Below are positions 9,717 to 64,000 of a stretch of 64,000 bases of DNA, one piece after another; the first letter of the stretch is position 1; every line of letters begins with the position of its first letter. The notes under the pieces were generated by a model that was not told the origin of the DNA, ran no database searches, and saw only the letters and a program-made list of their open reading frames with translations. Made by a program: the position numbers and the translations under genes. The DNA lies in the NCBI GenBank assembly GCA_028285525.1, contig JANQOZ010000015.1, positions 51,590 to 115,589 on the forward strand. The letters are read 5' to 3'. Origin of the DNA: Lysobacterales bacterium. Its GTDB lineage: Bacteria; Pseudomonadota; Gammaproteobacteria; Xanthomonadales; SZUA-38.

Positions 9717-9975
9717 GTTCCCAAACGGACGTAAGGGCGGAGTGGGGCTTCTAGATTTGGAGGATCGCCAAAACCGTTTCTCTACTGTGGAAAAACTGAA
9801 AATCGACGTCAGGCGATGAACTGCCGCGTATTTTCGCGTCGTTCCGGTTGCCGTGGCACCTCAAGATCAGCCCTAATCGTACTGACGCTGACGGCCCCTG
9901 GAATTCCAAACTTACCTGCGGACCTATTCAGCGAATTGAAAACCAGCGATCGGGCTCCTGGCTCGGCCGACAAAG

Positions 9976-27359: not shown

Positions 27360-27373
27360 TGAATACGTATGCA
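27360..27373. promoter_or_regulatory. Candidate LacI-family operator (TGAATACGTATGCA, CG-centred 14-bp palindrome)
   Basis: The half-sites TGAATAC / GTATGCA have one asymmetric position. The 16-mer TGAATACGTATGCAGG (27360-27375) recurs exactly, reverse-complemented, at 34308-34323. It sits between the divergent lacI-family and malQ genes. Confidence 0.65.
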
Positions 27374-31159: not shown

Positions 31160-31217
31160 GGTTGAGTTTTCTGCCTCGAAAGCCCCGCCTTCTAAGAGAG
31201 CTTCCCAAAGCCGGGGC

Positions 31218-31250
31218 AAAAAAAAGGGGCCCTCGCAGCGCGAGAGCCCC
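31218..31250 (-). terminator. Rho-independent terminator of the maltodextrin TonB-dependent receptor gene
   Basis: The hairpin GGGGCCCTCGC-AGC-GCGAGAGCCCC (31226-31250; 11-bp arms, one mismatch) is followed on the minus strand by an 8-U tract (the A-run at 31218-31225). It begins 30 nt after the stop at 31280. Confidence 0.75.
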
Positions 31251-31279
31251 TAGTGAGCCTACTAGTTTCTGCGGAAATG

Positions 31280-34243: not shown

Positions 34244-34309
34244 CTCGTGATTTGGACTGATCGTTCGCTATCACAGATTCTAGGAATGTGCTTTGAAACA
34301 GCAATGGCC

Positions 34310-34323
34310 TGCATACGTATTCA
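34310..34323. promoter_or_regulatory. Candidate LacI-family operator, second copy (TGCATACGTATTCA)
   Basis: Exact reverse complement of the site at 27360-27373 (16/16 identity over 34308-34323). It lies in the divergent TBDR/MFS promoter region, 50 bp upstream of the MFS start and 67 bp upstream of the TBDR start. Confidence 0.65.
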
Positions 34324-34372
34324 CTATTGAGTACGTCCGCTACAGCGCCCTAAGATCGAGCAAATCGCGAAA

Positions 34373-35944
34373 TTGCCTTCCGACCCATTGACCGATAAAG
34401 AGAAAAAATCTGCGGTTCGTCCAGAGCTGTCGTTCCTTCAGATTTGGAATATGTGTTTTGGTTTTCTGGGCATCCAGATGGGTTTTGCCCTGCAGAATGC
34501 CAACGTCAGCCGCATCTTCCAGTCACTCGGTGCCTCGATGGAGGAAATTCCGATTCTATGGATTGCCGCTCCGGTGACCGGGCTGCTCGTCCAGCCGATC
34601 GTCGGGTACTACAGCGATCGAACTTGGGGTCGACTGGGGCGTCGCCGTCCGTACTTTCTGTTCGGAGCCATCGCTACCACCGCAGCGTTATTCTTCATGC
34701 CGTACGCGCCGGGCCTGTGGATTGCCGCCGGGACGCTTTGGATCATGGACGCCTCGATCAACGTCTCCATGGAACCGTTTCGAGCCTTCGTGGGCGACAA
34801 CCTCCCCGAGCGACAGCGCAGCAAGGGTTTTGCCATGCAGAGCTTTTTTATCGGCATCGGCGCTGTCTTCGCATCAGCGCTGCCGTGGATGCTCGCCAAC
34901 TGGTTTGCGGTCAGCAACACCGCAGCCGAGGGTCAGGTGCCCGACTCCGTGCGCTACGCGTTTTACGTCGGCGGCGCCTGCTTGTTCCTGGCCGTTTTGT
35001 GGACGGTGCTTACCAGCCAGGAGTACAGCCCGGACGAGCTTAAGTCGTTTGAGCGTGGGTCAACGCCCGCTGGGGATCTCGCCGCGGCAAGCGGTCTCGT
35101 GTCCGAAGCTTTTCTGAGGCGCAGCGCGCTCTACTGGCTGCTGGCTGGATTGCTTGGCAGCGCCGCCGTGGCGTTTTGGGACTGGGATGCGCAGCTGCTC
35201 ATCCTGACGGCCGGTGCCGTGCTGTTCGCCGTCGTTCAGCGAATCGCTGCCAGCCTGCTGGCGGCCGGGCGCTACGACCACGGATTCTGCGAGGTAGTCG
35301 TCGATCTGTTCACCATGCCTCGGACGATGCGTCAGCTTGCGGTTGTGCAGTTTTTTTCCTGGTTTGCGCTGTTCGCTATGTGGATCTACACCACGGCCGC
35401 GGTAACGAGTCATCACTACGGGAGTGACGATCCCGCCAGCGCCTTATTCAACGAAGGGGCCAACTGGGTCGGCGTGCTGTTCGCCGCCTACAACGGCTTC
35501 GCCGCGATCGCCGCTGTGGCGCTGCCGTTCCTAGCCGGGCATCTTGGCCGCCGCGGTGCTCACGGCCTGTGTTTGATGATCGGCGCTGCCGCCTTTTTGT
35601 CGTTCTTTGTCATCGACGATCCCCGCTGGCTTCTGGCTTCCATGGTCGGCATCGGTATCGCTTGGGCGTCCATTCTGGCGATGCCCTATGCCATTCTCTC
35701 CGTGCATCTGCCGGCCAATAAAATGGGCGTGTACATGGGTATCTTCAATTTTTTTATCGTGATTCCGCAGCTGGTCGCCGCGAGTATTCTTGGCCTGTTG
35801 CTGCGTGAACTGTTTGCCAGCCAGAGCATCTACGCGATGGCGATCGCCGCTGGGTCCATGGCGATTGCTGCGGTGTCACTGATCTGGGTTGATGACCCCG
35901 AGACCGTTACCCATTCAGTTCAGGAGACGTCCGCGCATGCTTGA
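34373..35944 (+). CDS. MFS sugar transporter, SLC45/GPH-like (copy 1)
   Basis: 523 aa, 12 TM. The signature loop is YYSDRTWGRLGRRRPYFLFGA. Confidence 0.85.
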   Translation: MPSDPLTDKEKKSAVRPELSFLQIWNMCFGFLGIQMGFALQNANVSRIFQSLGASMEEIPILWIAAPVTGLLVQPIVGYYSDRTWGRLGRRRPYFLFGAIATTAALFFMPYAPGLWIAAGTLWIMDASINVSMEPFRAFVGDNLPERQRSKGFAMQSFFIGIGAVFASALPWMLANWFAVSNTAAEGQVPDSVRYAFYVGGACLFLAVLWTVLTSQEYSPDELKSFERGSTPAGDLAAASGLVSEAFLRRSALYWLLAGLLGSAAVAFWDWDAQLLILTAGAVLFAVVQRIAASLLAAGRYDHGFCEVVVDLFTMPRTMRQLAVVQFFSWFALFAMWIYTTAAVTSHHYGSDDPASALFNEGANWVGVLFAAYNGFAAIAAVALPFLAGHLGRRGAHGLCLMIGAAAFLSFFVIDDPRWLLASMVGIGIAWASILAMPYAILSVHLPANKMGVYMGIFNFFIVIPQLVAASILGLLLRELFASQSIYAMAIAAGSMAIAAVSLIWVDDPETVTHSVQETSAHA

Positions 35945-37391
35945 GATGCAGCGTCGCTGCACGTCGCCTTTTCTGGCGCTTCTCAGCCTGCCCGCGACGG
36001 CGATGGGCTTTGCCCTGTCGGTTCAGATTTCAGCACTCAGCTGGATCCTCACGACCCAATACGGGCTCGATATCCACGACGTGGGTTTGGTGTGGGCGGC
36101 AGGCCCGCTCGCCGGAATAATCGGCCAGGTCATCATCGGCATTGTCAGCGACAACACCTGGCTCTGGGGCGGGCGGCGCCGACCCTACATTCTCATCGGG
36201 GGCGTCCTGGCCGCGCTGATGCTGCTCGCGCTGCCCAACATCGACGTGATCGCGGATGGCCTGGGTGTTGACGGCATTCTGGGGATCGCGATTTTGATTG
36301 CGCTGGCCCTGGACCTGTCGATCAACGTCAGCTTCAACCCCACCCGATCGATTATTGCTGACGTCACAAGCACCGGCCCGAATCGCACGCGCGGATACAC
36401 CTGGATGCAGACCATTTCCGGCAGCTTTGGCGTGCTTGCCTATGCGATCGGCGCGATCTGGGACAACTACACGCTGATCTACTTTGGCGCGATCCTGGTG
36501 CTGCTGTTTTCCGTGCTTCCGCCGCTGTTCGTAGAGGAGCCCCGCGAGCTGAAGGAGAGCTCTGAGGCGCAAGACCCGCAACCGGTCAATCTCGGTGCTG
36601 TACTGATCAATATTCGACCGTTGTGGGGGTTCCTGGTCTATGGGGCTTACGCCCTCACGATGCGGTTGCTGCACGTTGAAGTAGAGCACTACTGGGTCGA
36701 GGGAGTATGCGCCGTCGCGACCTTGATCCTGGTTGTCCAGACTCTGTTCAGCCGTAAGACGACCGACAATCGGAGCGGCGGCAGTCTCGAGGGATTTCGG
36801 CGTGTGCTGGCAGCCCACGCGTTCAGCTGGCTGGGCGTGCAGACAATGTTTGTCTATATGTTCGCCTACGTACAGCAGACGCTGCCCGACCTGAGCGACG
36901 TGGACATGGGTCGGGTGGTATCCATCAGTTTTCTGATTCTCAACGCGGTCGCCGCCGTCCTGCCGGCGTTTGTTCTCGAACCGCTCACCCGTCGGCTTGG
37001 ACGGGTCAAGACCCATGTGCTTTGCCTTGCGGTGATGACCCTCGGCTATGGCGCCATCCTTCTGGCTGGCAGTTCTCTAGCGATGCTCTATGCCTGCATG
37101 GCGCTGCTCGGAGTCGGCTGGGCGGCGATTGTCAGCCTGCCCTTCGCGATCATGTCCAACAAGGTAGATCCCGCCCGCATGGGGCTGTTTATGGGCCTTT
37201 TTAATCTCGCCGTGGTCCTTCCCCAATTGACGGCGAGCCTTGGAGTTGGCGTGGCCGTCAGCCGCGCGGAGGACAAGGGCCTGATTTTTGTGATCTGCTG
37301 CGCATCCCTCCTGCTATCCACCATCGCCTGGATGCGAGTCGAAGAAGACGAGGAAGCCGAGTCATCGCTGATGCCCAGCTCGGTTCATTGA
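35937..37391 (+). CDS. MFS sugar transporter, SLC45/GPH-like (copy 2, tandem paralogue)
   Basis: The equivalent loop is SDNTWLWGGRRRPYILIGG. I place the start at ATG 35937, which overlaps the upstream stop as ATGCTTGA. The track starts at TTG 35889. Confidence 0.85.
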   Translation: MLEMQRRCTSPFLALLSLPATAMGFALSVQISALSWILTTQYGLDIHDVGLVWAAGPLAGIIGQVIIGIVSDNTWLWGGRRRPYILIGGVLAALMLLALPNIDVIADGLGVDGILGIAILIALALDLSINVSFNPTRSIIADVTSTGPNRTRGYTWMQTISGSFGVLAYAIGAIWDNYTLIYFGAILVLLFSVLPPLFVEEPRELKESSEAQDPQPVNLGAVLINIRPLWGFLVYGAYALTMRLLHVEVEHYWVEGVCAVATLILVVQTLFSRKTTDNRSGGSLEGFRRVLAAHAFSWLGVQTMFVYMFAYVQQTLPDLSDVDMGRVVSISFLILNAVAAVLPAFVLEPLTRRLGRVKTHVLCLAVMTLGYGAILLAGSSLAMLYACMALLGVGWAAIVSLPFAIMSNKVDPARMGLFMGLFNLAVVLPQLTASLGVGVAVSRAEDKGLIFVICCASLLLSTIAWMRVEEDEEAESSLMPSSVH

Positions 37392-44327: not shown

Positions 44328-46307
44328 ATGGTGGTTTCGGGCCTTCCGGTATGCTCACCGCGTGACGCCACGACTCAACCAACGGCCTGCATGACTGCGG
44401 TCAACATCCCCGGTCATACCATCCTGCGCGAACTGGGGCGTGGGGGTACTGCCGTTGTGTACCTGGCGCTGCAGGAGCACCTGAAGCGCGAGGTTGCGGT
44501 CAAAGTCCTGCGCCCGCCCGACAACGATGACGGCTCGATCACCGAGCGCTTTCTTAACGAAGCGCGAACCATCGGTCGTCTGCACCATCCGAACATCGTG
44601 TCCATTTTTGATTTCGGCGAGACCGACGACGGCGGGCTGTTCTATACGATGCCCAATCTGCCGATGGCCCTGGCCGATTTTAACTATGAGTCGGACACGC
44701 AGCTCAGCGAGATTCTCCTGCAGGTGTGCGACGGACTGGACTACGCTCATCGCCAGGGCATCGTGCATCGCGACATCAAGCCTGAGAACCTGCTGCTCGA
44801 TCAGCGGGGCAACGTTCAGATCGCCGACTTTGGCATCGCGTTTTCCACGCGCTCGGTGGCGTCCCGGGTGACTCGCGAAGGCCATACGATTGGCAGCAGT
44901 CATCATATGAGTCCCGAACAGGCGCGGGGTAAGCCGGTTGACCCGCGTTCCGACGTCTACAGCCTGGGTGTCGTGCTGTATGAGATGCTGACCGGTGGGC
45001 CGCCTTTCCAAGGGCCTGACGACGTTTCGGTGTTGGTCGCCCACGTCTCCGATCCAGTTCCGTCGCTCCCGAATCAGCATCGTCACTGGCAGCGTATCGT
45101 CAATCGTGCGCTGCAGAAAAAACCGCAGGATCGTTATCAGACGGTTTCCGCTATGGCCGACGATATTCGTCGCGTCGGCAGCGGCCAGCAGGGCATCACC
45201 ACTCCGCTGGCATCGCTTTCGGCCGGCACCCGCAGGCCGATTTATCTGGGTGCTGCCGTGCTGGGAGCCGTCATCCTGTGGTGGCTGGTTCCTGGCGAAC
45301 AGGAGCCAGCGCAGGTCTCGGAGAGTCCAGCGTTGCTGACCCCCAAGCGCGCAGTGGATTCAGGCGTTGCTGCTGAAGTCACGGAACCGCTCCAGCCCAA
45401 GGCAGACGCGCCGACGGAGTTGTCGGAGGCCCCGGCTACGGTGCAAGAGGTGACGAAAGACGATGGGCCGAGTGCAACCGCCGAACCGTCGCCCGAGGAA
45501 ACCGACACACCGACGATGCCGGACGCGGCCCCGCTAGCTGAAGCCGAAAAACCCGAGGTAAAGAAAGCCTGGTCGCCCGGGGACCTGCTCGGCGATCCGT
45601 TGGGTATCGAGACCTTTTACGTTCCCAGCAGGGTTACGGGCGAAAAAGGTGAGGTCAGTGAGGTTGCCAGCGCGTTTGCCATGGCGGGTCTTGAAATCAC
45701 TGTCGGTCAGTATCGCGAATTCACGAAGGAAATGCGGCGCCCAGGCAGTCCGTGCAGCCAGCCCGAGGGCATCTCGCTGCGGCGTAAATCCTGGTATGCA
45801 CCCGGCTACATTCAAAGTGACGATCATCCCGTTGCCTGCGTCAGCTATCAGGATGCGGTGGACTATGCCGCGTGGCTCTCGAAGCGAAGCGGCAATCGCT
45901 ATCGCGTCCCCAGCGCCAGCGAGTGGAACCACGCGGCGTTGGTGGGGCACGCCGCAACCACCGCCTGTCAAACCGGCAACGTTGCCGGTCGAGAACGCAG
46001 AAAGCTGTTTTCGAGCGGCCAGTTCAGCTGTGCGGACGGCCATCGCTTCACGGCGCCGGTCGGCAGCTTCCGCGCAAACCGGCTGCAAATCTCGGATCTA
46101 CGAGGCAACCTAAGCGAATGGACCAGCGACTGCGCCGAGACCGTGCCGGAGGGCATCGAACCCTGTTCGCTTCGAACTGTCCGCGGAACCTCGTGGGAAG
46201 ACGGACGCGATCAATCCATGCTCGATCACGAAGAGACGCTGGAAGCAGAGCAGGGTTATCCGACGGTCGGCATACGCCTTGTTCGAGAGATTAGCCAAAG
46301 CCCCTGA
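44328..46307 (+). CDS. Transmembrane Ser/Thr protein kinase fused to an FGE-sulfatase (SUMF1-like) ectodomain
   Basis: The kinase has LGRGGTAVVYLA, VAVK, HRDIKPENLL, DFGIA and SPEQ. It is followed by a TM helix (PIYLGAAVLGAVILWWLV) and a Pro/Glu-rich linker. The FGE-like domain reads FAMAGLEITVGQYREF...HPVACVSYQDAVDYAAWLS...RVPSASEW...NLSEWT...RGTSWED. The likely start is ATG 44391. Confidence 0.85.
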   Translation: MVVSGLPVCSPRDATTQPTACMTAVNIPGHTILRELGRGGTAVVYLALQEHLKREVAVKVLRPPDNDDGSITERFLNEARTIGRLHHPNIVSIFDFGETDDGGLFYTMPNLPMALADFNYESDTQLSEILLQVCDGLDYAHRQGIVHRDIKPENLLLDQRGNVQIADFGIAFSTRSVASRVTREGHTIGSSHHMSPEQARGKPVDPRSDVYSLGVVLYEMLTGGPPFQGPDDVSVLVAHVSDPVPSLPNQHRHWQRIVNRALQKKPQDRYQTVSAMADDIRRVGSGQQGITTPLASLSAGTRRPIYLGAAVLGAVILWWLVPGEQEPAQVSESPALLTPKRAVDSGVAAEVTEPLQPKADAPTELSEAPATVQEVTKDDGPSATAEPSPEETDTPTMPDAAPLAEAEKPEVKKAWSPGDLLGDPLGIETFYVPSRVTGEKGEVSEVASAFAMAGLEITVGQYREFTKEMRRPGSPCSQPEGISLRRKSWYAPGYIQSDDHPVACVSYQDAVDYAAWLSKRSGNRYRVPSASEWNHAALVGHAATTACQTGNVAGRERRKLFSSGQFSCADGHRFTAPVGSFRANRLQISDLRGNLSEWTSDCAETVPEGIEPCSLRTVRGTSWEDGRDQSMLDHEETLEAEQGYPTVGIRLVREISQSP

Positions 46308-54263: not shown

Positions 54264-57200
54264 TTGTCGATGAGCATGTTCGCCGGCACGTGCTTCCGCC
54301 GCGGCAAGCTGTTGATCCCGCTCCTGCTGGTCCTTCCGTGCATACTGCTGGCCCAGGAGTCGCTGATTCCCACGCTCCAGGCTGATGGCTCAATCAGCAG
54401 TGAGCAGATCGAAGCGGCGATCGAAGCCGTCCAGGCCCGCGACGAGCTGGGTGAAGAGGCTCGCAACGACGTTGTCGGTGAGCTCCGTCAGGCGCAGGTT
54501 GAGCTGTCGGCCCGCGCGGCCTTCGAGGCTGACGCGCAGGCGTTTGCCGCGGTTTTGGATACGGCTCCTCCCGAGATCACGAGGCTTCGTTCGGAGCTGG
54601 ACGATTCGGCGGCGACGCCCCTTTCGCTCTCCGATCTAGATGTGGCGGCTGACGCAACGCTCGGTGAGCTAGAGCAGGCGCTTGCGCGTGAGGTGGCCGC
54701 GGCATCCAGCGCACAGGCGAGTCTGAATCAACTTGAATCGGCCCTCGCCGCGCAGCGGGAACGGCCGGCGGCGATCAGGGCTCGTCTGGTGGAGCTGCAG
54801 GCGACGCTGGACGATCTTGCCGCGCAGCTCAGCGCGCCGGCGCCGGCAGGCGGCACCGCCATCTTGAGTGAAGCGGAGCGACTCACGGCCGCGCTCACGC
54901 GCGAGGCGCGAAGGGCAGAGCGGGTGCAGCTCGAGCAGGAGCAGCTGAGCTACGACCTTCGGCTGGAACTGCTTCGAGCACAGCGCGACATGGCACAGCT
55001 TGCCTCCAATGAAGCGTCACAGCGGGTCGCGTTACTGGAGACGACGGTCAACCAGGCAAGGCAGGCCGCGGCGCAGCTGGCGCAAACCCAGGCGGCAGAG
55101 GCTGAGCTGGCTGCCGCGGACAAACATCCGGCCTTGCAACAGATTGCTGAAGGCAATCTGGAGCTGACGCGCGAACTGCCGACGGTGGCGCAGGCGATTG
55201 AGCTTGCTACCTCCGAACTCAATGAGGTGGAAACCCAGATTGAGCAGGTTGAGCAGGCTCGCGAACGCGCCCAGCAAAGGCTCGATATCGGCGGGATTTC
55301 TCAGGCCACGGGTCGCCTGTTTGTGGATCAACGCCGGAGTCTGCCGCAGTTTTCGCAGTACCGGCTTGAGGTGCGCAGGCGTCGGGAAACGCTGGCGGAA
55401 ATCGGTCTGGCACAGGTGCGGGTCGAGGAGCAGCGCCGCGACTTGACCCCTTTAGACGCCGCCGTCGAGCGGGTGATGGATACGGTTCGGGACGAGCTTA
55501 CGGCGACGGACGAGCTGGAGACGATCCGCGGCGAGGCGTTGGAGCTGCTGCGGAAACGTCGCGAGCTGCTGCAGCAGGCGGCGCGCACCTACCGAACCTA
55601 TATCCGACTTCTGGGCGATCTGGATGCCGCGCAGCAGCAGCTGCTCGACAGTGCGGCCGCCTTCCGGAGCTTTCTGGATCAGAACCTCATCTGGATACCG
55701 AACAGCAAACCGGTTGGCCCCGCAACGCTGGACGCCCTGGAGCGGGCAGTTCCCTGGGCGCTGTCGCCCGCAAGCTGGAGTCAAACAGCCCGGTCCGCCT
55801 TTTCCACGCTCACCGCCATGCCGCTGCGCGTGACCGGAGCCCTGCTTGTTGTGCTTGGCCTGCTTGCGCTGCAGCCGGTGTTGAAGCGCTGGTATCGCCA
55901 GCTGAACCGTCGACTTGGCAAGCTTTCGAGCGACCAGATATCGGTCACGCTCGGCGCGCTCGCCATCGCCGCGGTTGAGGTGATCCCGGTGCCGCTCGCG
56001 CTCGGGCTGGTCGGTATCGCCGTGCAGAATATCCCTGACCCGACCGACTTCTCGTCCTCGCTGGCGGCAGCGTTTCTGACGACCGGTCCGTTTCTCTACA
56101 ACATCCTCTTCATTAGAGTTCTGTCCGCGCCGAAAGGCGTACTGCGCACCCACTTCAGCTGGAAGGAAGAAAACGTTGCGATGGTGCGGCGGCAGCTGGA
56201 CCGGGTGATCGTCATCGGCATGCCTTTGGCGTTTGTCACCGTGCTCGGGCTTACTACTGACGAAACCGCCTACCGCGACAGCCTCGGACGAATTGCCTTT
56301 GTGCTGCTGATGGGCCTGTTTGCCGCCGTAGCCTGGCCGCTCGGACACCCCAACAGGGCGGTCGGATCTTCTTATTACACGAGTCGCCCCGACAGCTGGC
56401 TGAGTCGTTTCAAGTGGCTGTGGTTTGGCCTGGACGTCGGAATCCCGCTGCTGCTGGCCCTGCTCGCATTGGTGGGCTACCTCTATACGGCGGCGGTCCT
56501 GGTCGAAAAATCGGTTGAAACGGTGTGGCTGATTCTCGGGCTGGTGCTGATCGGCCTGATTATCCGTCGCTGGCTGGCGTTGGAGCGGCGCAAGATCTTT
56601 GTGGAGCAGGCCCGGGAACGTCGCGAGGCATTAAAGGCTGAGCGGGCCGCCAGCGAGGACCCGGACGCTGAGCCGGATCCCGAGGGTGAACAGGCCCCGG
56701 CAAAGAGCACGCCGCTGGATCTTCACGCGGTGGACCAGCAGACGCAGAAGCTCCTGCAAGCCGGCATGATCGTAGCCGGAATCCTCGGTGGCTGGGCGAT
56801 CTGGGCCGAGGTCTTTCCGGCGCTGACGGTGCTGGAGGAGGTGAGTCTCTGGACGCAGACGATCACCGTCGACGGCGAGCAGGTGGTGAAACCCGTATCG
56901 CTGGCTGACGTCCTGCTCGCTGTGTTGATCGGCCTCGCGACGGTGGTGGTGTCTCGCAACCTCCCGGGTCTCATGGAGATTGCGGTGCTCAGGCACCTGG
57001 AGCTGCAGCCCGGCGGTCGCTACACGATCAACACGCTGCTGCGCTACGCGATCATTACGGTCGGCGTGGTGTCGATTCTCAGCATCATCGGCTGGAACTG
57101 GTCCCGGATTCAGTGGCTGGTCGCTGCCCTGTCGGTCGGGCTGGGATTCGGCCTGCAGGAAATTGTTGCCAACTTTGTTTCCGGCCTGATCATCCTGTTC

Positions 57201-57725
57201 GAACGACCGATTCGAGTTGGTGACACGGTGACGGTGGGTGATCTGACGGGCAACGTCTCAAAGGTGCGGATCCGGGCGACCACCATTACGGACTGGGATC
57301 GCAAAGAGATCATTGTCCCCAACAAGGCGTTTATCACAGACCACGTGGTGAACTGGACGCTGTCCGATCCCATCACGCGTGTGGTGGTCCCGGTAGGGAT
57401 TGCCTACGGCTCCGACACGGCGCTCGCCACGCAGGTCATGCGGGAGACCCTCAGGACTATGCCGCTCGTGCTCGATGAACCCGAGCCGAGCGTTTACTTC
57501 ATCGGCTTCGGCGACAGCTCGCTCGATTTCAAGCTCTACGTCTACTCGCGGCAGTTGTCTGACAGGCTGCCGCTGATGCATGCGGTTCACTCCACCATCC
57601 TTGAGGCCCTGCGCGAGCACGATATCGAGATCCCGTTTCCTCAGCGCGATCTGCACGTTCGCTCCGTGACCGAGGAGATGAAGGGGCTCAGCACCACAAC
57701 ATCTGCACCCAAATCGGCCGACTGA
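54264..57725 (+). CDS. Large MscS-family mechanosensitive channel (MscK/KefA/MscM-like)
   Basis: 1153 aa with a signal peptide, a long periplasmic coiled-coil region rich in A/E/Q/L, multiple TM helices, and the MscS core LQEIVANFVSGLIILFERPIRVGDTVTVGDLTGNVSKVRIRATTI. Confidence 0.9.
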   Translation: MSMSMFAGTCFRRGKLLIPLLLVLPCILLAQESLIPTLQADGSISSEQIEAAIEAVQARDELGEEARNDVVGELRQAQVELSARAAFEADAQAFAAVLDTAPPEITRLRSELDDSAATPLSLSDLDVAADATLGELEQALAREVAAASSAQASLNQLESALAAQRERPAAIRARLVELQATLDDLAAQLSAPAPAGGTAILSEAERLTAALTREARRAERVQLEQEQLSYDLRLELLRAQRDMAQLASNEASQRVALLETTVNQARQAAAQLAQTQAAEAELAAADKHPALQQIAEGNLELTRELPTVAQAIELATSELNEVETQIEQVEQARERAQQRLDIGGISQATGRLFVDQRRSLPQFSQYRLEVRRRRETLAEIGLAQVRVEEQRRDLTPLDAAVERVMDTVRDELTATDELETIRGEALELLRKRRELLQQAARTYRTYIRLLGDLDAAQQQLLDSAAAFRSFLDQNLIWIPNSKPVGPATLDALERAVPWALSPASWSQTARSAFSTLTAMPLRVTGALLVVLGLLALQPVLKRWYRQLNRRLGKLSSDQISVTLGALAIAAVEVIPVPLALGLVGIAVQNIPDPTDFSSSLAAAFLTTGPFLYNILFIRVLSAPKGVLRTHFSWKEENVAMVRRQLDRVIVIGMPLAFVTVLGLTTDETAYRDSLGRIAFVLLMGLFAAVAWPLGHPNRAVGSSYYTSRPDSWLSRFKWLWFGLDVGIPLLLALLALVGYLYTAAVLVEKSVETVWLILGLVLIGLIIRRWLALERRKIFVEQARERREALKAERAASEDPDAEPDPEGEQAPAKSTPLDLHAVDQQTQKLLQAGMIVAGILGGWAIWAEVFPALTVLEEVSLWTQTITVDGEQVVKPVSLADVLLAVLIGLATVVVSRNLPGLMEIAVLRHLELQPGGRYTINTLLRYAIITVGVVSILSIIGWNWSRIQWLVAALSVGLGFGLQEIVANFVSGLIILFERPIRVGDTVTVGDLTGNVSKVRIRATTITDWDRKEIIVPNKAFITDHVVNWTLSDPITRVVVPVGIAYGSDTALATQVMRETLRTMPLVLDEPEPSVYFIGFGDSSLDFKLYVYSRQLSDRLPLMHAVHSTILEALREHDIEIPFPQRDLHVRSVTEEMKGLSTTTSAPKSAD

Positions 57726-57767
57726 TCCCCCCTCGCACCGACGAGTCGCTTTTGGATGTGCCGAAAG

Positions 57768-57779
57768 TTGTATATACAA
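57768..57779. promoter_or_regulatory. Perfect 12-bp palindrome TTGTATATACAA (GntR/HutC-type operator-like) upstream of the second TBDR
   Basis: It is self-complementary and contains GT-N-TA-N-AC. It lies 109 bp upstream of ATG 57888, in an otherwise GC-rich intergenic region. Confidence 0.45.
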
Positions 57780-57887
57780 ATCTGGTAATCTGAGGCGCGT
57801 TGTGGCACGTTACGCGCTGGGCAAACCGGTCGGGACATCGATCACAAGCCCGGAAAGCTCTGACCACTGACTTTGGGAGGCCCCCGA

Positions 57888-60170
57888 ATGAACCGAAGAA
57901 CAACAATTTCGCTGCTGGCAGCAGCGACAGGTCTGGGGGGGCTGCCAATGGCAGTGACCGCCCAGGATGATGGATCTGGACCGCTGGAAGAGGTCATCGT
58001 GACCGCGACTCGGCGCGAAGCCAGCCTGCAGGACGTTCCGATTGCGGTGACCGCGATCAGCGAAGAAGCGCTGCTTCGCAGCGGCATCGTTGACGTGACC
58101 CGACTCGACGCCGTCACGCCAGGTCTGAGTTTCGGTCAGTCCGGCTCGGACGCCCGTCCCGCTATTCGGGGTGCGCGTACCGAAACGATCAACGAGCGGC
58201 AGGATCCCGTGATCGGCTTCTTTGTCGACGGCGTCTATCAGGCGCGTACGTCGCAGGCCCTCGCAGCGTTTTATGACGTCCAGCGGGTTGAGGTGCTGCG
58301 CGGACCGCAGGGCACCCTGTTCGGTCGAAACACGTTTGGCGGCGCGATCAGCGTCACGACGAACCGGCCCGATATGGAGGGTATCGACTACCGGATCTCG
58401 GCTCAGGCGGGCAGCTTCGGGCACACCCGCTTCGAGGGCTTCTTCAACACGCCGCTCACCGACACGGTCGGCCTGCGGATTGCCGGCATGACCGAGCAGA
58501 GCGACGGCTTCATCAACAACCTGATCGGCGAAGACTGGGGACAGCAGGACAACGACGCAGTCCGCCTCAGCCTGTCGTTTGAACCGACCGACACCTTCAG
58601 CGGCTTGCTCCGGCTTTATGGCTGGCAGCAGGGCGGTCTCGGTGGCGGTGACTTCGGTTACACGGTGCTTGGGACGCTGCGCGATCCGGCAACGGGCATC
58701 ACAAGCCTGAACGGCGTGCTCGACCCGAACAACCCGCGAAACGGCTCCGGCGGCCTGCCTGCTGACCGCGGTCCTTACGACATCTTCCGCAACACGCCGT
58801 CGCTGCGTGATACGGACGCCTTTGGTATCGACCTCAACCTTGAGTGGGATCTCGGCGCGGTGACGCTGAAGTCCATTACGTCAAGTCAGCAGTTCGAAAC
58901 CTTCCGTCAGAACGATTCGGACTTCAGCGGCGGCGACGGTTCGTTCTCATCTGTGGATACGGACACGGACACGCTGACCCAGGAGTTCCAGCTGTACTCC
59001 AACGACAGCAGCAGCGGCCTGGACTGGATTGTCGGTGCGTACTTTATCGAAGACGAGACCGAAGAGATCTTCCTGTTTGAAGGGCTGTGCGCGGCGAGTG
59101 ACGTCGACATGGACCCGACCACGGCCACCGTCTGCACCGGCCCTGCCAGCCCCACGATCGACTTCGCCGCTCGCGGTGTGGTCGACACGTCTGGCTACGC
59201 CGTTTTCGGTGAGGCGACCTACGAGATCAGCGACACTTTCAGCATCACCGGCGGCATCCGCTACACGGAAGATGACAAGGACTTCGATCGCTTCGACCAG
59301 GACCGCTTCATCAACACGGGTGAGATTGTCCAGATCGTGGACGAGTCCGAGACGTTTGACGAGGTGACCTACAAGCTGGGCGCCCAGTGGATCGTCGGTG
59401 ACGACAGCCTGATCTACGCGCACTACTCCACGGGCTTCAACTCCGGCGGCTTCAACACGGCCGGCGCCGAGCTAAGCTTCGACGAGCAGACCGTGGATGC
59501 GTTTGAGCTGGGTACCAAGAACGTTCTGGCTGACGGGCAGCTCGTGCTGAACGCCGCGCTGTACTACAACTCCTACGACGACCTGCTGTCGCAGGGTTTC
59601 ATCAGCGTAGGTCCGACCGTCTCGGTATTCAGCACCAACGCCGGTGAAGCGGATATCCTTGGCCTGGAAGCTGAGCTCGAGTGGGAACCCTATGAAGACC
59701 TGGTCTTCACCGCGGCCCTCAACTTCACCGATGGAGAGCTGGGTGACTACATCGTAGGCAACCCGTTTGTGCTCGGTGGCGAGACGATCAACGGTGTGAA
59801 CAACCTGATTCAGCTCGACGGTTCCAAGATTGCCTTCACCCCGGACTTCACCGCCGCGTTCACCGCGCGTCAGCGGATCGATCTGGGTGAGTTCGGCTCA
59901 CTGACCCCGTTCATCCAGGTGTCTCTGTCCAGCGACTATCAGACGAACGACGTTCGCTACGAGGGCAGTGTTCAGGATGACTACGCGTTGGTGGACCTTC
60001 GCCTGAGCTGGCTGAGTGAAAGCGAGCGCTGGGGCATCGAAGGTTTCGTCAACAACGTCAGCGACGAAGCGGTTCTGAACCGCACGGTCGTCGGCGGCCA
60101 GGACGCCATCTTCGCCAACTTCAACATGCCTCGCTACGGCGGGCTGCGGGTCAATTATCAGTTCCGCTAA
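57888..60170 (+). CDS. TonB-dependent outer-membrane receptor (substrate unknown)
   Basis: Start placed at the ATG after GGAGG (the track uses TTG 57873). It has a signal peptide, the plug LEEVIVTATRREASLQDVPIAVTAISEEAL, and a barrel ending GGLRVNYQFR. Confidence 0.9.
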   Translation: MNRRTTISLLAAATGLGGLPMAVTAQDDGSGPLEEVIVTATRREASLQDVPIAVTAISEEALLRSGIVDVTRLDAVTPGLSFGQSGSDARPAIRGARTETINERQDPVIGFFVDGVYQARTSQALAAFYDVQRVEVLRGPQGTLFGRNTFGGAISVTTNRPDMEGIDYRISAQAGSFGHTRFEGFFNTPLTDTVGLRIAGMTEQSDGFINNLIGEDWGQQDNDAVRLSLSFEPTDTFSGLLRLYGWQQGGLGGGDFGYTVLGTLRDPATGITSLNGVLDPNNPRNGSGGLPADRGPYDIFRNTPSLRDTDAFGIDLNLEWDLGAVTLKSITSSQQFETFRQNDSDFSGGDGSFSSVDTDTDTLTQEFQLYSNDSSSGLDWIVGAYFIEDETEEIFLFEGLCAASDVDMDPTTATVCTGPASPTIDFAARGVVDTSGYAVFGEATYEISDTFSITGGIRYTEDDKDFDRFDQDRFINTGEIVQIVDESETFDEVTYKLGAQWIVGDDSLIYAHYSTGFNSGGFNTAGAELSFDEQTVDAFELGTKNVLADGQLVLNAALYYNSYDDLLSQGFISVGPTVSVFSTNAGEADILGLEAELEWEPYEDLVFTAALNFTDGELGDYIVGNPFVLGGETINGVNNLIQLDGSKIAFTPDFTAAFTARQRIDLGEFGSLTPFIQVSLSSDYQTNDVRYEGSVQDDYALVDLRLSWLSESERWGIEGFVNNVSDEAVLNRTVVGGQDAIFANFNMPRYGGLRVNYQFR

Positions 60171-60190
60171 GAAGAACTGTTGATCCAAAG

Positions 60191-60220
60191 AAAAGGCCAG
60201 CCCTCGGGCTGGCCTTTTTT
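60191..60220. terminator. Bidirectional rho-independent terminator between the TBDR and AcnX genes
   Basis: AAAAGGCCAGCCC-TCG-GGGCTGGCCTTTTTT has a perfect 9-bp GC-rich stem flanked by an A-tract and a T-tract. It sits between convergent stops at 60170 and 60239. Confidence 0.85.
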
Positions 60221-60238
60221 GTGGGGAATAGGTTGTGG

Positions 60239-60676
60239 TCAGGCGGAGGCGGGGCGCCGGATCTCCACGACACCTTCGTTACCGTCGACCTTGACCCAGT
60301 CGCCGTCCTGAATCACCTCCAGCGGATTCTGATCCAGGTCCGTCACCGCCGGTACGCGCATCACCACCGCACCGAGCGCCATCTTCGTAGTCAGCTCGTT
60401 GAAGATCACGGCCAGCGGGCCGGCGCCGGCAAGCCTCGCTGTCTGAAAGTTGCTGGCCCAGCCTGACGACCCCTTGGCGCCGCGAAACACCAGCACCTTG
60501 CCGGCAAACGACTGGCCAACTTTTTCATGACGCCGTTCGGTGACCGTCCCCGTCATCGGATCGATGCCGCCGAAGCCCGAAAGAGTCTGGGAGGTGACAA
60601 ACGCTTCGCCCTCAGCAACACCCTCGACCACACCACGGCCGCGCAGCACAATCACGTCCTGCTGCTCGTCGCTCAC
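60239..60676 (-). CDS. Aconitase X small subunit (swivel domain, DUF126)
   Basis: 145 aa: ...GEAFVTSQTLSGFGGIDPMTGTV...GKVLVFRGAKGSSGWASNF...AVIFNE. The GTG start overlaps the large-subunit stop (GTGA at 60673-60676). Confidence 0.8.
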   Translation of the reverse strand: MSDEQQDVIVLRGRGVVEGVAEGEAFVTSQTLSGFGGIDPMTGTVTERRHEKVGQSFAGKVLVFRGAKGSSGWASNFQTARLAGAGPLAVIFNELTTKMALGAVVMRVPAVTDLDQNPLEVIQDGDWVKVDGNEGVVEIRRPASA

Positions 60677-61953
60677 GTCAGCTCCCCCTGCCAGCGGCCG
60701 GTGATGGCAGCGTTGACGCAGTCCTCCACCGAGCCGAACCAGGTGTCGAAACCCAGCGTGGCGGGCAGATAGTGGGCCTGCTTACAGGAGTCGGTGGCTG
60801 CAACCTTCACGCCCTCCGGGCTCACCCGGCTGAGCGCGGGGCAGGAGTCTGACATCAGGTAAGCACCCGCTTTTTCGATGATCTCGCTGTAGCCCATGCG
60901 GTCGGCATGCTGCTTTAGCGCCTTGGGCGTAAACATCCAGAGCTCGGTGTTGGGCGAGAGCTTTTTGCCCTCCAGCAGCTTGGCCACGATCTGCACCTGC
61001 TCGATGGACGCGTGTGGACAGCCGAGCATGATGAAGTCGACCTCCGGATCGGTGGCGCAGTTCAGGTTCTCATACGCTTTGCGCATCTCGGCTTTGCCGA
61101 AGTGGATCGTCTCCTCCGGCGCCTTGTCACCCAGCGCCCGTTCCAGCGACGGCGCTTCCGGCGTCATGCCCACCAGGTGATACATCTCCACCCCGCCGGA
61201 CGTCGCCGCCGCCGCGCCGAAGTGTTTCGCCTTGCGCAGGCTGGGGTGGTGCTGGAGGCCGTTGACCACCGGCGATTCCTCCTGGACCACCTCGCCCACG
61301 TAGTAGCCCAGCAAACCCCAGTGCATCATCGACTCTACCTCGCACTCCACCTCGATCAGGTGCGTCCCGTAGCGGTTCTCCGGGATGTGCAGCCCCCAGT
61401 AGGGAATGCGCGCGGTCAGCATGGCCGCTGCTGCGCTCTGCGCACCTTCCACGTTGCCGCGAGCGCCGATGATGGAGTTGGCGAAAACGATTGCGGACGA
61501 TTCCATCCAGGCCAGGTGTTCACCGTAGGTGGGCACGTTCCCGACCTGGTAGGGCGTACACGTGTTGCAGCGCTGAATGCCGATACGGTCGCAGAAGTCA
61601 GCGTTCTTCTTCACCAGCTTCTGGGTCCGCTCGGACACTCGCTGCTGATCGTAGTAGTCCGGATCGCCGGCCTCGATGAGCTTATAGGCCATCGTCTTCA
61701 CCCGGGGAATTTCCAGCGGCACGTCGCTGTCGAGGTTCATGAGGGAGAAGATGGCTTCCATATCGTCATCGGAAGACACGACGTTGCGGCGATTTGGTAG
61801 CGATCCGACGCTGCCGCCGCAGACGTTGTTGGTCTCGACCAGCCGTTCGGCGCCCAGCGCTTTGCCGTAGCGCGTCAGCAGCGACATTGCCTGCTGGATT
61901 GCCGGGCCCTCGGCGCCGTCCAGCATGGCCTGCTCATGATCCGTTAATTTCAT
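60673..61953 (-). CDS. Aconitase X large (catalytic) subunit (DUF521)
   Basis: 426 aa. The N-terminus MKLTDHEQAMLDGAEGPAIQQAMSLLTRYGKALGAERLV is typical of AcnX. GGGGA lies upstream of the ATG. Confidence 0.8.
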   Translation of the reverse strand: MKLTDHEQAMLDGAEGPAIQQAMSLLTRYGKALGAERLVETNNVCGGSVGSLPNRRNVVSSDDDMEAIFSLMNLDSDVPLEIPRVKTMAYKLIEAGDPDYYDQQRVSERTQKLVKKNADFCDRIGIQRCNTCTPYQVGNVPTYGEHLAWMESSAIVFANSIIGARGNVEGAQSAAAAMLTARIPYWGLHIPENRYGTHLIEVECEVESMMHWGLLGYYVGEVVQEESPVVNGLQHHPSLRKAKHFGAAAATSGGVEMYHLVGMTPEAPSLERALGDKAPEETIHFGKAEMRKAYENLNCATDPEVDFIMLGCPHASIEQVQIVAKLLEGKKLSPNTELWMFTPKALKQHADRMGYSEIIEKAGAYLMSDSCPALSRVSPEGVKVAATDSCKQAHYLPATLGFDTWFGSVEDCVNAAITGRWQGELT

Positions 61954-61963
61954 GAATTCCCCA

Positions 61964-61981
61964 AATTTGTCAATACAAATT
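61964..61981. promoter_or_regulatory. 18-bp perfect palindrome AATTTGT-CAAT-ACAAATT in the divergent AcnX / oxidoreductase promoter region
   Basis: The arms AATTTGT/ACAAATT are exact reverse complements. The site lies 11-28 nt upstream of the AcnX start. The 11-mer CAATACAAATT is repeated directly at 62036-62046. Confidence 0.45.
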
Positions 61982-62056
61982 GTCGATATTACCGCATAAG
62001 TCCCTAGAACACAGCGGCCACGTCAGGCAAAATAGCAATACAAATTTGAGCTTGAC

Positions 62057-63649
62057 GTGAACGGTGCTGCCAGGATGACCCGAGTATACGATGCCATCAT
62101 TATCGGTGGAGGCCACAACGGTCTGACCTGTGGCGCCTACCTGTCCCGGGCCGGGCTGAAGACGCTGGTGCTCGAACGAAAGCACATCATTGGGGGCGGC
62201 GCCGTCACCGAAGAGTTTTCGCCCGGCTTCCGCGCGTCAACCTACTCCTTCATCATGGGCCACCTGCACCCCAAGGTGGTCTCCGAGCTCGAGCTCACCA
62301 AATACGGCCTGGATAAGGTTGAGGTGCCGGATGTGATCAATCCGACCTTCGACAACGACTGCATCGTTTTCACCAAAGACCCGGTGAAGAATCAGCAGCA
62401 AATCGCCCGCTTTTCCAAGAAGGACGCGGAGGTCTATCCCAAGTTCTTTGAATACTTGAGCGGCGCGATCGATCTGCTCCGGCGGCTGCAGCTGGAAACA
62501 CCTTTTGACCCGACCAAGCGCGACCTTCGTTCTCTCATGAAGATGGCCGGTTTTGCCTGGCGCTATCGGAACGTTGGGCGCGACCTGTATCGCATCATCG
62601 ACACGCTTTCGATGAGCGCCTACGACTACATCTCTCAGTGGTTCGAAACCGACATCGTGAAGGCCAAGTTCCTGTACTGGTCGACCATCGGCGGCAACGT
62701 CGGGCCCTACGCGCCCGGCACGGCTTTCTATCTGGTCGCGCACCTGATCGGCCAGACCGGTATGAGCTTTACGCGCGGCGGTATGGGGTCGATTTCCAAC
62801 GCGATCAGCGCTTCCGGTCAGGCTCACGGAATGGAGGTTGAGGTGTCGCACGGTGTTGAGCAGGTGCTCGTTAAGGACGGCCGCGCCCGCGGCGTGGTCC
62901 TGGCGAACGGTGAAGAGATCCATGGGCGACTGGTCGTGTCGAACGTCAACGCCAAGACCACCTTTACCCAGCTGGTGGCGCCCGAGCACCTGCCGGACGA
63001 GTTCCTGCACGACATCCGTTCGTTCCGAGCGCGAGGCTCGTCCTTCAAGCTGCTTTGTGCGGTCGACGCGCTGCCTCAGTACAGCGGCTTCGACAAAGAA
63101 AAAGCGGGGACCAACTACCCGGCCTATGCGCATATCGCGCCAAGCTGCGAATACCTGGAGCGGGCGTTTGATGACGCGAAGTACGGCGGCTTCTCGGAAA
63201 ACCCCTTCATGTCGCCCATCGTGCCGTCTTACTTCGACGATTCGCTCGCCCCGGAAGGCAAACACGTAGTTTCGCTCTATGGCGGGGTCACGCCGTATGA
63301 GCTGAAGAACGGCAGCTGGGACGATGAGCGGGAAAACGTGGTCAGAAACGCGTTCAAGGTCATGGATCGCTTTGCGCCGGGCTTTTCCGCGACCGTGCTC
63401 GACTACAAGCTTTACCTGCCGCCGGACATCGAGGCGGATATCGGCATGCCGGGCGGCAACACGCAGCATGGTGACCTGACGCTTGATCAGATGTTCTTTA
63501 TGCGCCCGGCGCCTGGCTACGCCGACTACCGCTCGCCCGTGAAGGCGTTGTTTCAATGCGGCGCGTCAACGCATCCCGGTGGTTCGGTTTCCGCGGTGTC
63601 GGGCCACAACGCGGCGCGGGAGATCCTCAAAGACGTCAAACGCCTCTAG
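62057..63649 (+). CDS. FAD/NAD(P)-dependent oxidoreductase, phytoene-desaturase (CrtI)-like family
   Basis: Rossmann motif YDAIIIGGGHNGLTCGAYLSRAGLKTLVLERKHIIGG. The likely start is ATG 62075 (MTRVYD). Confidence 0.8.
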   Translation: MNGAARMTRVYDAIIIGGGHNGLTCGAYLSRAGLKTLVLERKHIIGGGAVTEEFSPGFRASTYSFIMGHLHPKVVSELELTKYGLDKVEVPDVINPTFDNDCIVFTKDPVKNQQQIARFSKKDAEVYPKFFEYLSGAIDLLRRLQLETPFDPTKRDLRSLMKMAGFAWRYRNVGRDLYRIIDTLSMSAYDYISQWFETDIVKAKFLYWSTIGGNVGPYAPGTAFYLVAHLIGQTGMSFTRGGMGSISNAISASGQAHGMEVEVSHGVEQVLVKDGRARGVVLANGEEIHGRLVVSNVNAKTTFTQLVAPEHLPDEFLHDIRSFRARGSSFKLLCAVDALPQYSGFDKEKAGTNYPAYAHIAPSCEYLERAFDDAKYGGFSENPFMSPIVPSYFDDSLAPEGKHVVSLYGGVTPYELKNGSWDDERENVVRNAFKVMDRFAPGFSATVLDYKLYLPPDIEADIGMPGGNTQHGDLTLDQMFFMRPAPGYADYRSPVKALFQCGASTHPGGSVSAVSGHNAAREILKDVKRL

Positions 63650-63684
63650 CGGGAGAGGCGGCCCACACACGGCACGAGCCGGGG

Positions 63685-64000
63685 TTAATCGATTCGCGGC
63701 GAACGGATCAGCAGCGTAAACCCCGCAGCGAGAATCAGGGTGAGTGCAAACCAGCGAAAGTTGGTGCCGATCGCCAGCCCCATACCCACCAGCATCCCGC
63801 CCACCAGCGGACCCACGATGGCCCCGGTTCGCCCGGCACCGATGGCCCAGCCAACGCCGGTGGTTCGGATCTCTGTGGGGTAGAGCCTTGCAGCGATGGC
63901 ATAGAGCCCGACAAACCCGCCCTGCATAAAAAATCCAATGAGGCCGAACAGCACCAGAATGGTGATCGAACCGGTCGCAAAGCCGAAAGCCCCCATCAGG
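63685..64000 (-). CDS. MFS transporter (C-terminal part; gene continues beyond the right edge)
   Basis: The sequence GGFVGLYAIAARLYPTEIRTTGVGWAIGAGRTGAIVGPLVGG shows a typical MFS TM11-12 region. The frame is open to the window end. Confidence 0.7.
   Translation of the reverse strand, partial: LMGAFGFATGSITILVLFGLIGFFMQGGFVGLYAIAARLYPTEIRTTGVGWAIGAGRTGAIVGPLVGGMLVGMGLAIGTNFRWFALTLILAAGFTLLIRSPRID

Follow-up and report, generated by a model that had tools for sequence, protein, structure and literature searches.

The stretch of DNA analysed here, referred to as the window, comprises 64,000 nucleotides of contig JANQOZ010000015.1 (assembly GCA_028285525.1) of a Lysobacterales bacterium, and its right-hand end (57768-64000) carries part of a gene cluster that includes the two subunits of an AcnX (aconitase X) enzyme. 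Judged from its sequence and from comparison with related loci, the cluster is a real, conserved and co-regulated catabolic system, and its AcnX, although the enzyme family is known, is predicted to have a function not yet described within it. The genes that an initial annotation had named there, namely a TonB-dependent receptor, both AcnX subunits, a CrtI-like oxidoreductase and a major facilitator superfamily (MFS) transporter, were all recovered in place by open reading frame (ORF) listing and profile searches.

The AcnX genes are encoded on the reverse strand, where the large, catalytic subunit (60673-61953, 426 aa) matches PF04412 at 394.9 bits against a cut-off of 31.5, and the small, swivel (domain 4) subunit (60239-60676, 145 aa, GTG start) matches PF01989 at 74.5 bits against a cut-off of 27, placing both in the AcnX family. 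The stop codon of the large-subunit gene and the GTG start of the small-subunit gene overlap as GTGA, as had been noted before, and the overlap can be read directly at the junction (ctg acG TGA gc). Convergent with this pair is the TonB-dependent receptor gene (57888-60170, forward strand), whose ORF opens with TTG at 57873 and whose likely start is the ATG at 57888, with GGGAGG 5' of it and with a signal peptide and the TonB-box-like sequence EEVIVTATRRE following. Plug (PF07715, 53.1 bits) and barrel (PF00593, 123.5 bits) domains identify the product as a TonB-dependent receptor, and in the profile search it fell below every siderophore, haem or B12 equivalog cut-off. Between the convergent genes lies a GC-rich hairpin, GGCCAGCC-ctcg-GGCTGGCC (60195-60220), with an A run on one side and a T6 tail on the other, that is a probable bidirectional terminator; the hairpin was read by eye, and a consensus promoter/terminator scan missed it and was otherwise uninformative. 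The genes to the left of the receptor (MscK, small ORFs and a PvdQ-like acylase) are unrelated, and thus the receptor gene and the palindrome upstream of it, described below, would form the left border of the cluster.

On the other side of the AcnX genes, and divergent from them, a CrtO/CrtI-like oxidoreductase dependent on flavin adenine dinucleotide (FAD) and belonging to the amine-oxidase fold is encoded on the forward strand (62075-63649, 524 aa; the ORF opens with GTG at 62057 and ATG 62075 is the likely start). This flavoenzyme matches the PF01593 and NAD_binding_8 profiles, and its nearest solved structure is CrtI (4dgk, E=1e-16). Its scores lie below the cut-offs of both the CrtO model (268.8 bits, E=9e-80, against 1000) and the crtI_fam model (105.5 bits against 238.1), which makes it no more than a distant relative that shares the amine-oxidase/CrtI fold. 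The window then ends in the last 104 codons of the MFS transporter gene (63685-64000, reverse strand), which runs past the window edge. The best model for this fragment is the aromatic acid/H+ symporter family (TIGR00895, E=4e-16), with matches also to MhpT and PcaK models, and the fragment is near-identical to the C-terminus of a 438-aa MFS protein in the collinear locus L001, considered below.

The active site of AcnX and its relation to the two known enzymes

Among solved structures, the nearest relative of the large subunit is TkAcnX, the type IIb mevalonate-5-phosphate dehydratase of Thermococcus kodakarensis (TK1248/TK1249, PDB 7cnr/7cns), with 7cnr_A matched at E=3.5e-58 (200.7 bits, approximately 35% identity); 7cnp/7cnq, also solved, match at E=4e-42. 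The nearest solved chains for the small subunit are TK1248 (7cnr_B, E=1.2e-20) and AF0055. As in TkAcnX, the large and small subunits are separate polypeptides. Residue roles were taken from a structural study of the family (PMC8184944), and positions were compared in alignments of the large subunit (12 orthologous-clade loci and the window) and of the small subunit (7 loci). According to that study, a Glu, a Ser, a Lys and a Tyr bind the 3-OH and the carboxylate, and a Ser of domain 4 is the general base. Equivalents of E292, S293, K530 and Y534 are retained in the window and in every aligned clade sequence, as is the catalytic Ser of the small subunit (S70 of AtAcnX, S62 of TkAcnX). The Glu-Ser-Ser, Lys and Tyr holding the carboxylate and 3-OH, together with the small-subunit Ser, are shared with TkAcnX. 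Cysteines occupy the positions equivalent to C273, S449 and C508 (C110, C283 and C342 of TkAcnX, where they ligate the cubane cluster) in the window and in the 12 clade sequences. Relative to AtAcnX, the window enzyme thus exchanges Ser449 for Cys and reduces the C508-W-C510 motif to one Cys. With this pattern, the window AcnX is predicted to be a type-II, three-Cys hydro-lyase of the [4Fe-4S] type.

In contrast, residues specific to hydroxyproline, including those that bind the ring nitrogen and the pyrrolidine, are replaced in the window and throughout the aligned clade (W35F, C71S, T72G, D203G, I206V and N294S). The small-subunit pocket residues read F-S-S-G in the window, as opposed to W-S-C-T in AtAcnX and L-S-T-V in TkAcnX, and the position of AtAcnX N233, which has been equated with the phosphate-binding Asn79 of TkAcnX (PMC8184944), is Thr in the window and Thr or Ala across the clade. 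Judging by these residues, the window AcnX is neither of the two known AcnX enzymes and would fall within the uncharacterised territory of type II, where the bacterial subclasses IIc-IIf lack landmark residues and are uncharacterised (PMC8184944).

Each of the two known activities deserves consideration nonetheless. A role as dehydratase for cis-3-hydroxy-L-proline, the activity of AtAcnX, is suggested by the top NCBIfam match of the large subunit, which is by name the LhpI equivalog (E=8.6e-70), and by the existence of two-subunit bacterial AcnX enzymes with this activity (PMC8184944), the family being bacterial and its type IIa members also having two subunits. Yet the hydroxyproline equivalog (NF051439, cut-off 700) is matched at 235.7 bits by the large subunit and 55.3 bits by the small subunit, identity to AtAcnX is 29.6%, none of D203, T72, W35 and I206 is kept, and the cysteines follow the type II pattern. 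The initial annotation had remarked on the absence of the usual hydroxyproline partners, and this absence extends to the relatives: no proline-racemase-like epimerase, pyrroline-2-carboxylate (Pyr2C) reductase, HypO- or HypD-type gene or other hydroxyproline gene is found among the annotated genes of 16 orthologous loci, defined as those with an AcnX large subunit at least 61% identical, or beyond the MFS gene in L001. We regard this assignment as highly improbable, and the earlier suggestion that the AcnX substrate may be new gains support, as the enzyme does not cluster with proven cis-3-hydroxy-L-proline dehydratases by identity, equivalog score or residues. A bacterial mevalonate-5-phosphate dehydratase of the modified mevalonate pathway would agree with TkAcnX being the nearest solved relative and with its same three-Cys ligand set and E-S-S motif, but the phosphate-binding position is Thr or Ala in the whole clade, the genes, with that of a TonB-dependent receptor, sit in what appears to be a regulon for uptake and catabolism under the control of a repressor rather than in an isoprenoid biosynthetic context, and no mevalonate-pathway, decarboxylase or UbiX gene was found within 10 kb in any locus; this assignment is scarcely credible.

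A conserved neighbourhood with a shared operator

The course of the cluster beyond the window edge was read from its relatives. Positions 54480-63999 of the window are collinear with L001 at 83.6% DNA identity, and the AcnX large subunit of L001 (97% identical) is the closest among 21 loci from a scan of a genome collection; its receptor is 93% identical. Past the point that corresponds to the window edge, L001 encodes in order the MFS transporter, a HutC-type GntR regulator, a methylenetetrahydrofolate reductase (MTHFR) with a DUF5981 domain and a LigM/DesA-like demethylase and, divergent from these genes, an isochorismatase-like hydrolase, an HpaE/XylG-like aldehyde dehydrogenase and a short-chain dehydrogenase/reductase (SDR). 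The same gene order is present in L003, L022 and L024, whose AcnX is 82-83% identical. By collinearity, the regulon in the window's own genome would extend over approximately 17 kb, with the window ending in its left part. The L001 demethylase (3455-4837) has a GcvT fold and aligns with LigM structures from end to end (E=1.8e-139), and the isochorismatase-like hydrolase keeps the Asp-Lys-Cys triad of amidohydrolases. Analysis of orthologous neighbourhoods and extension to the right, both of which the initial annotation had proposed, thus reveal partners that are kept and genes that are catabolic rather than of the hydroxyproline pathway; the O-demethylase/C1 module, the amidohydrolase, the aldehyde dehydrogenase and the SDR, as well as a sister version of the cluster dependent on coenzyme A (CoA), had lain outside its view.

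The module for methyl removal resembles LigM/DesA, MetF and the C1 module by which Sphingobium sp. SYK-6 handles lignin aromatics, in that a tetrahydrofolate-dependent, GcvT-fold O-demethylase is combined with MTHFR (and with PurU in relatives) and in that the cluster also has an aromatic-acid-type MFS transporter and a TonB-dependent receptor. Unlike the SYK-6 system, it lacks protocatechuate/gallate genes, no ring-cleaving dioxygenase was found in any cluster examined, and AcnX, CrtO-like enzymes, Cys-amidohydrolase and RidA are foreign to the vanillate/syringate route.

Two palindromes of the form TTGT-N4-ACAA, from which co-regulation had been proposed, are present at 57768-57779 (TTGTATATACAA) and 61967-61978 (TTGTCAATACAA) and are the only two matches in 64 kb; taken alone the pair is not significant, with a mean of 0.51 matches in shuffled sequence and 9 of 100 shuffles reaching two. 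A 20-nt weight matrix was built from 16 sites in orthologous loci of other genomes only (consensus AAAGTTGTATATACAACTTT). With this matrix, operator 1 (AAAGTTGTATATACAAATCT, 57764-57783), a HutC-family palindrome approximately 105 nt upstream of the receptor start, scores 30.3 bits and operator 2 (AAATTTGTCAATACAAATTG, 61963-61982), within the 121-nt divergent intergenic region between the AcnX large-subunit and flavoenzyme genes, scores 28.3 bits, as compared to 13.0 bits for the next best window position and a maximum of 21.1 bits over 100 shuffles. Both sites still rank first and second when the closest relative is left out of the matrix, and also when the matrix is drawn from alphaproteobacterial-lineage loci alone (L008, L010 and L019), in which case the second site (20.4 bits) and the best shuffle (20.6 bits) score almost alike. 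The 12-nt core of operator 2 lies upstream of the AcnX large-subunit ATG and ends 13 nt from it, a proximity that fits repression. Equivalent sites occur in the matching intergenic region of L001 (9972), L003, L022 and L024, and L001 has four operator sites in all, including that at 9972 and one at 14176 upstream of the receptor, with one site in each promoter region of the cluster. This arrangement argues that the operons for the receptor, AcnX, the flavoenzyme, the regulator with the MFS transporter, the demethylase and the hydrolase belong to one regulon. The proposal of co-regulation is thus upheld by an operator that is kept before cluster operons in the proteobacterial orthologous loci examined; the motif is absent from AcnX loci of a sister clade.

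A GntR-type regulator, which the initial annotation had predicted, is encoded by the second gene past the window edge in L001 (6112-6888). It combines GntR (PF00392) and UTRA (PF07702) domains and scores 232.8 bits with the HutC model (TIGR02018), above the equivalog cut-off of 220. Collinearity predicts a counterpart in the window's own genome, where it would act as a repressor on the palindromes, whose TGTATATACA-type core we take to be typical of the HutC subfamily. In contrast to HutC, the L001 regulator gene and its operators sit inside an AcnX cluster, and hutU, hutH, hutI and hutG, which control of hut genes would call for, are absent from the cluster loci. Because of this setting, the effector is probably not urocanate itself and may be a related enoate.

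The 16 orthologous loci come from genome bins (gammaproteobacterial, unclassified Pseudomonadota, Sphingomonadaceae, one unclassified alphaproteobacterial and one betaproteobacterial from a lake), from Parasphingorhabdus marina DSM 22363, from the chromosome of a member of the Anaerolineales and from three unassigned metagenome contigs. In P. marina the cluster lies at 1540754-1562043 of NZ_FSQW01000001.1. The flavoenzyme is next to or near AcnX in 13 of them. Other members recur: a second flavoenzyme paralogue, the pair of aldehyde dehydrogenase and SDR, the demethylase with MetF and PurU, the regulator, the Cys-hydrolase, a 4-oxalocrotonate tautomerase (4-OT), RidA, a BNR beta-propeller with a DUF2848 protein or a fumarylacetoacetate (FAA) hydrolase, a glutathione S-transferase (GST), esterases including a tannase/feruloyl-esterase-family protein, TonB-dependent receptors (at 33-43% identity in L004, L006, L007, L009, L010 and L023), and transporters of the aromatic-acid and glycoside-pentoside-hexuronide (GPH) types. 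For the DUF2848 protein, a search of the structure database returned no match.

Several of these loci have features of their own. In the Anaerolineales locus (L017, 9511-13989 of OZ252150.1), the AcnX large-subunit orthologue stops at residue 286, the small-subunit gene lies 2.9 kb further on, and a 24-nt string, GGTCATTTGTACGCACAAAAAACG, occurs twice (9511 and 11283), which suggests that the large-subunit gene was disrupted by an insertion or duplication. The AcnX-type cluster of L023 carries a homocysteine-S-methyltransferase-like gene (PF02574, 3508-4488), and no GcvT-fold demethylase was found within 21 kb there; methyl removal may be a recurring need that different enzymes fill. The sister AcnX clade (52-60% identical; L011-L016 and L025-L027, with the large subunit at 10001 or 8001) has a fixed context of its own, consisting of a PF12831 FAD oxidoreductase, an IlvD/EDD-family dehydratase, the large and small AcnX subunits, a TRAP/NMT1 transporter and a LysR regulator. 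With its PF12831 flavoprotein, this clade indicates that the pairing of type-II AcnX with a flavoenzyme recurs with unrelated flavoenzymes.

Sister clusters with a crotonase in the AcnX slot

Orthologues of the flavoenzyme outnumber those of AcnX, with at least 120 matches at 62% identity or more in varied genome and metagenome assemblies. When the two hit tables were compared, many flavoenzyme contigs also held an AcnX hit, and 17 contigs of at least 100 kb did not. Four long loci without AcnX on the contig (L028, L029, L030 and L111) all hold clusters with orthologous partners, and together with L031, on a short contig from a metagenome scan, they make up five CoA-type loci. Their flavoenzyme orthologues stand at 65-73% identity, and the partners they share, where present, include the demethylase (56-58% identity), aldehyde dehydrogenase (41-47%), SDR (approximately 50%), tautomerase (55-65%), second flavoenzyme (80-83%), Cys-hydrolase (approximately 50%), RidA and an orphan protein of approximately 470 aa. 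In all five clusters a crotonase-type enoyl-CoA hydratase occupies the AcnX slot, and an acyl-CoA synthetase of the nucleoside diphosphate (NDP)-forming type is present in all four long loci, L031 being too short to show one. The CoA version thus runs SDR, tautomerase, crotonase, flavoenzyme, and the AcnX version runs SDR, AcnX large, AcnX small, flavoenzyme (P. marina) or tautomerase, AcnX large, AcnX small (L006 and L008). The two versions are mutually exclusive, in that none of the 16 AcnX loci holds the CoA genes and none of the five CoA loci holds AcnX.

The simplest reading of these arrangements is a non-orthologous displacement in situ, whereby a hydration or dehydration that the crotonase catalyses on a thioester would be done by AcnX on a free acid. 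Because AcnX on one hand and the synthetase with the crotonase on the other exclude each other, have the same place in the operon, with SDR or tautomerase on one side and the CrtO-like flavoenzyme on the other, and keep orthologous partners, they would perform an equivalent step of water addition or removal. In other respects the two solutions differ, as the crotonase is an unrelated protein that uses a thioester and an oxyanion hole instead of the Fe-S Lewis acid of AcnX, and the crotonase route requires ATP and CoA. AcnX enzymes abstract a proton alpha to a carboxylate, with an Fe-S cluster assisting loss of the beta-hydroxyl, and a role as free-acid hydratase or dehydratase agrees with this chemistry. 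Because the flavoenzyme retains 66-73% identity from one version to the other, its substrate is probably a species free of CoA; it might, for instance, make the enoate before activation. The pair of BNR and DUF2848 proteins was seen in AcnX-type loci only; the screen of CoA-type loci did not extend to the FAA-hydrolase, which a single locus carries. That these proteins supply a CoA-free C-C cleavage is speculation.

Two further observations concern these clusters and the flavoenzyme family. The orphan protein of approximately 470 aa (L028, 2361-3770, and L029, L030 and L111; 45-64% identity) lies beside RidA and the acyl-CoA synthetase, occurs also in the AcnX-type locus L021, and has no Pfam, NCBIfam or PDB match. 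The metagenome scan with the flavoenzyme alignment, which contains generic FAD motifs, returned mostly paralogues at 38-43% identity in unrelated contexts and was of no use for counting displacement; among L031-L110, such distant homologues are very often tandem paralogue pairs in contexts without AcnX, which hints at a two-protein unit.

The proposed pathway and its alternatives

Taken as a whole, we consider it rather probable that the cluster is a HutC-type-repressed catabolic regulon for a methoxylated organic acid, in which AcnX serves as a free-acid hydro-lyase. In this model, a GntR repressor of the HutC subfamily would bind a AAAGTTGTATATACAACTTT-type palindrome in each promoter region and an intermediate of the pathway would presumably release it. 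Uptake of a carboxylic acid bearing a methyl-ether group would fall to the TonB-dependent receptor and the aromatic-acid-type MFS transporter, and the tetrahydrofolate-dependent LigM/DesA-like demethylase would take off the methyl group with MTHFR, joined by PurU in relatives. AcnX would then act on the free carboxylate, either hydrating a 2-enoate or dehydrating a 3-hydroxy acid, and is thus cast as a CoA-independent enoate hydratase or 3-hydroxyacid dehydratase, with both direction and chemistry predicted from sequence and context. The CrtO-like flavoenzyme, whose role is likewise deduced from its setting, most likely makes or uses an adjacent unsaturated or oxidised centre of the free acid, and the SDR, aldehyde dehydrogenase and Cys-amidohydrolase, in many relatives with the 4-OT tautomerase, RidA and FAH-like proteins, would handle the products.

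As to the substrate, the likely classes are methoxylated (hetero)aryl-propanoid or aryl-acrylate acids and their conjugates, or a methoxylated nitrogen-containing metabolite. The demethylase, aromatic-acid-type MFS transporter, esterases, GST and HutC-like regulator speak for acids of the methoxylated aryl-acrylate or aryl-propanoate kind and for their esters; the paradigm effector of HutC is urocanate, which is an aryl-acrylate. RidA, the RutB-like Cys-amidohydrolase, the two amine-oxidase-fold flavoenzymes and the XylG/HpaE-like aldehyde dehydrogenase with 4-OT point to nitrogen-containing enamine or amide intermediates and to others resembling muconate semialdehyde. A more far-reaching proposal, which we hold only tentatively, is that this AcnX represents a third function of the family and forms the core of a CoA-independent route resembling beta-oxidation, consisting of the CrtO-like flavoenzyme, AcnX, SDR and an FAH-like C-C hydrolase. 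Other bacteria would run the same route with acyl-CoA synthetase and crotonase, on a substrate widespread in aquatic and soil bacteria, possibly methoxylated aryl-acrylates or aryl-propanoates from plant and seagrass phenolics, or algal nitrogen metabolites such as mycosporine-like amino acids. Catabolic genes for such methoxylated candidates, mycosporine-like amino acids included, were not found in the searchable literature, and a search that left most subscription journals outside its reach found no work linking AcnX, DUF521 or DUF126 to aromatic, O-demethylase or mycosporine catabolism or to this partner set.

Some known routes were considered and rejected. Demethylation of the dimethylsulfoniopropionate type does not fit a demethylase that matches DmdA at E=2.5e-7 only, as compared to DesA at E=4.7e-182. 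For a gallate/oxalomesaconate hydratase role, the dioxygenase and aldolase are absent, and for the catabolism of vitamin B6, or of nicotinate, picolinate or trigonelline, the key enzymes are absent.

Of the broader alternatives, the one that merits most attention, even if it is unlikely, is that AcnX acts not on the acid imported by the MFS transporter but on a non-aromatic hydroxy acid or sugar-acid moiety, such as quinate, tartrate, malate or a uronate released from phenolic esters or glycosides, or on a 2,3-dihydroxy acid that would be converted to a 2-oxo acid, with the demethylase linked only loosely. GPH transporters, the BNR beta-propeller (glycosylhydrolase-like, 109 bits) and esterases of the tannase/feruloyl-esterase or BD-FAE kinds recur among the loci, the sister clade sits beside IlvD/EDD dehydratases and TRAP transporters in a context like that of sugar acids, and about half of the loci lack the demethylase within 10 kb; in the window lineage, however, one operator type spans the AcnX, demethylase, MFS and receptor promoters, and in the CoA-type clusters the slot of AcnX is filled by a crotonase rather than by a sugar-acid dehydratase. 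Degradation of isoprenoid or apocarotenoid acids, with the CrtI/CrtO-like enzyme working on a polyene or allylic position and AcnX hydrating a 3-methyl-2-enoate, is improbable. Hydration of a 3-methyl-2-enoate is the reverse of mevalonate-phosphate dehydratase chemistry, the nearest AcnX relative acts on a 3-hydroxy-3-methyl acid, and the flavoenzyme has its E=9e-80 match to the CrtO model, but both family scores are far under their cut-offs, the LigM/DesA-like demethylase, aromatic-acid-type MFS transporter, Cys-amidohydrolase and RidA are left unexplained, and the argument derives mainly from family names. An accidental grouping of unconnected genes might be read from the convergence of the receptor and AcnX genes and from the unrelated MscK and PvdQ-like acylase upstream, but synteny is kept across bacterial classes and the proteobacterial orthologous loci share a promoter-specific operator that is found nowhere else in the window, and a chance association is close to untenable.

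Several findings weigh against the model of a methoxylated-acid regulon. The L001 demethylase falls short of the LigM cut-off (565.5 bits against 580) and of the DesA cut-off (605.5 against 800), and the full-length L001 MFS transporter falls short of that of TIGR00895 (356.5 against 418.55). Within 10 kb, some orthologous loci lack the demethylase, some the amidohydrolase and some the pair of SDR and aldehyde dehydrogenase, and the pathway may for this reason be modular. The partner set is chemically mixed, with hints of phenolic esters as well as of nitrogen-containing compounds. The displacement sample is small, with five CoA-type loci of which four were picked for lacking an AcnX orthologue on the contig, and the expected continuation of the window's own genome to the right of 64000 is read from relatives only.

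Elsewhere in the window, positions 27369-37391 hold a probable maltodextrin or alpha-glucan uptake locus, with a MalQ 4-alpha-glucanotransferase (27369-29645), a TonB-dependent receptor of 987 aa (31280-34243) and, side by side, two genes for MFS/GPH-like transporters (34373-37391), on which the strongest AT skew of the window (-0.24) falls. Other genes encode a protein in which a Ser/Thr protein kinase domain is followed at the C-terminus by an FGE-sulfatase (sulfatase-modifying-factor-like) domain (44328-46307), a 1607-aa surface protein with He_PIG, cadherin-like, FG-GAP and PASTA domains (21336-26159) and a 1365-aa Reg_prop/Y_Y_Y-PAS-GGDEF-EAL signalling protein (11324-15421).

Only two AcnX activities are known, and the 2021 structural study leaves the landmark-less bacterial type-II subclasses unassigned (PMC8184944). 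The locus described here supplies one such subclass with a defined regulon, a cognate regulator and operator, and a cultured host, Parasphingorhabdus marina DSM 22363, and it yields a concrete prediction from non-orthologous displacement, namely that AcnX replaces an acyl-CoA synthetase and a crotonase. If that prediction is true, a CoA-free hydratase would be added to catabolic enzymology, and an abundant, conserved pathway would be opened to experiment.

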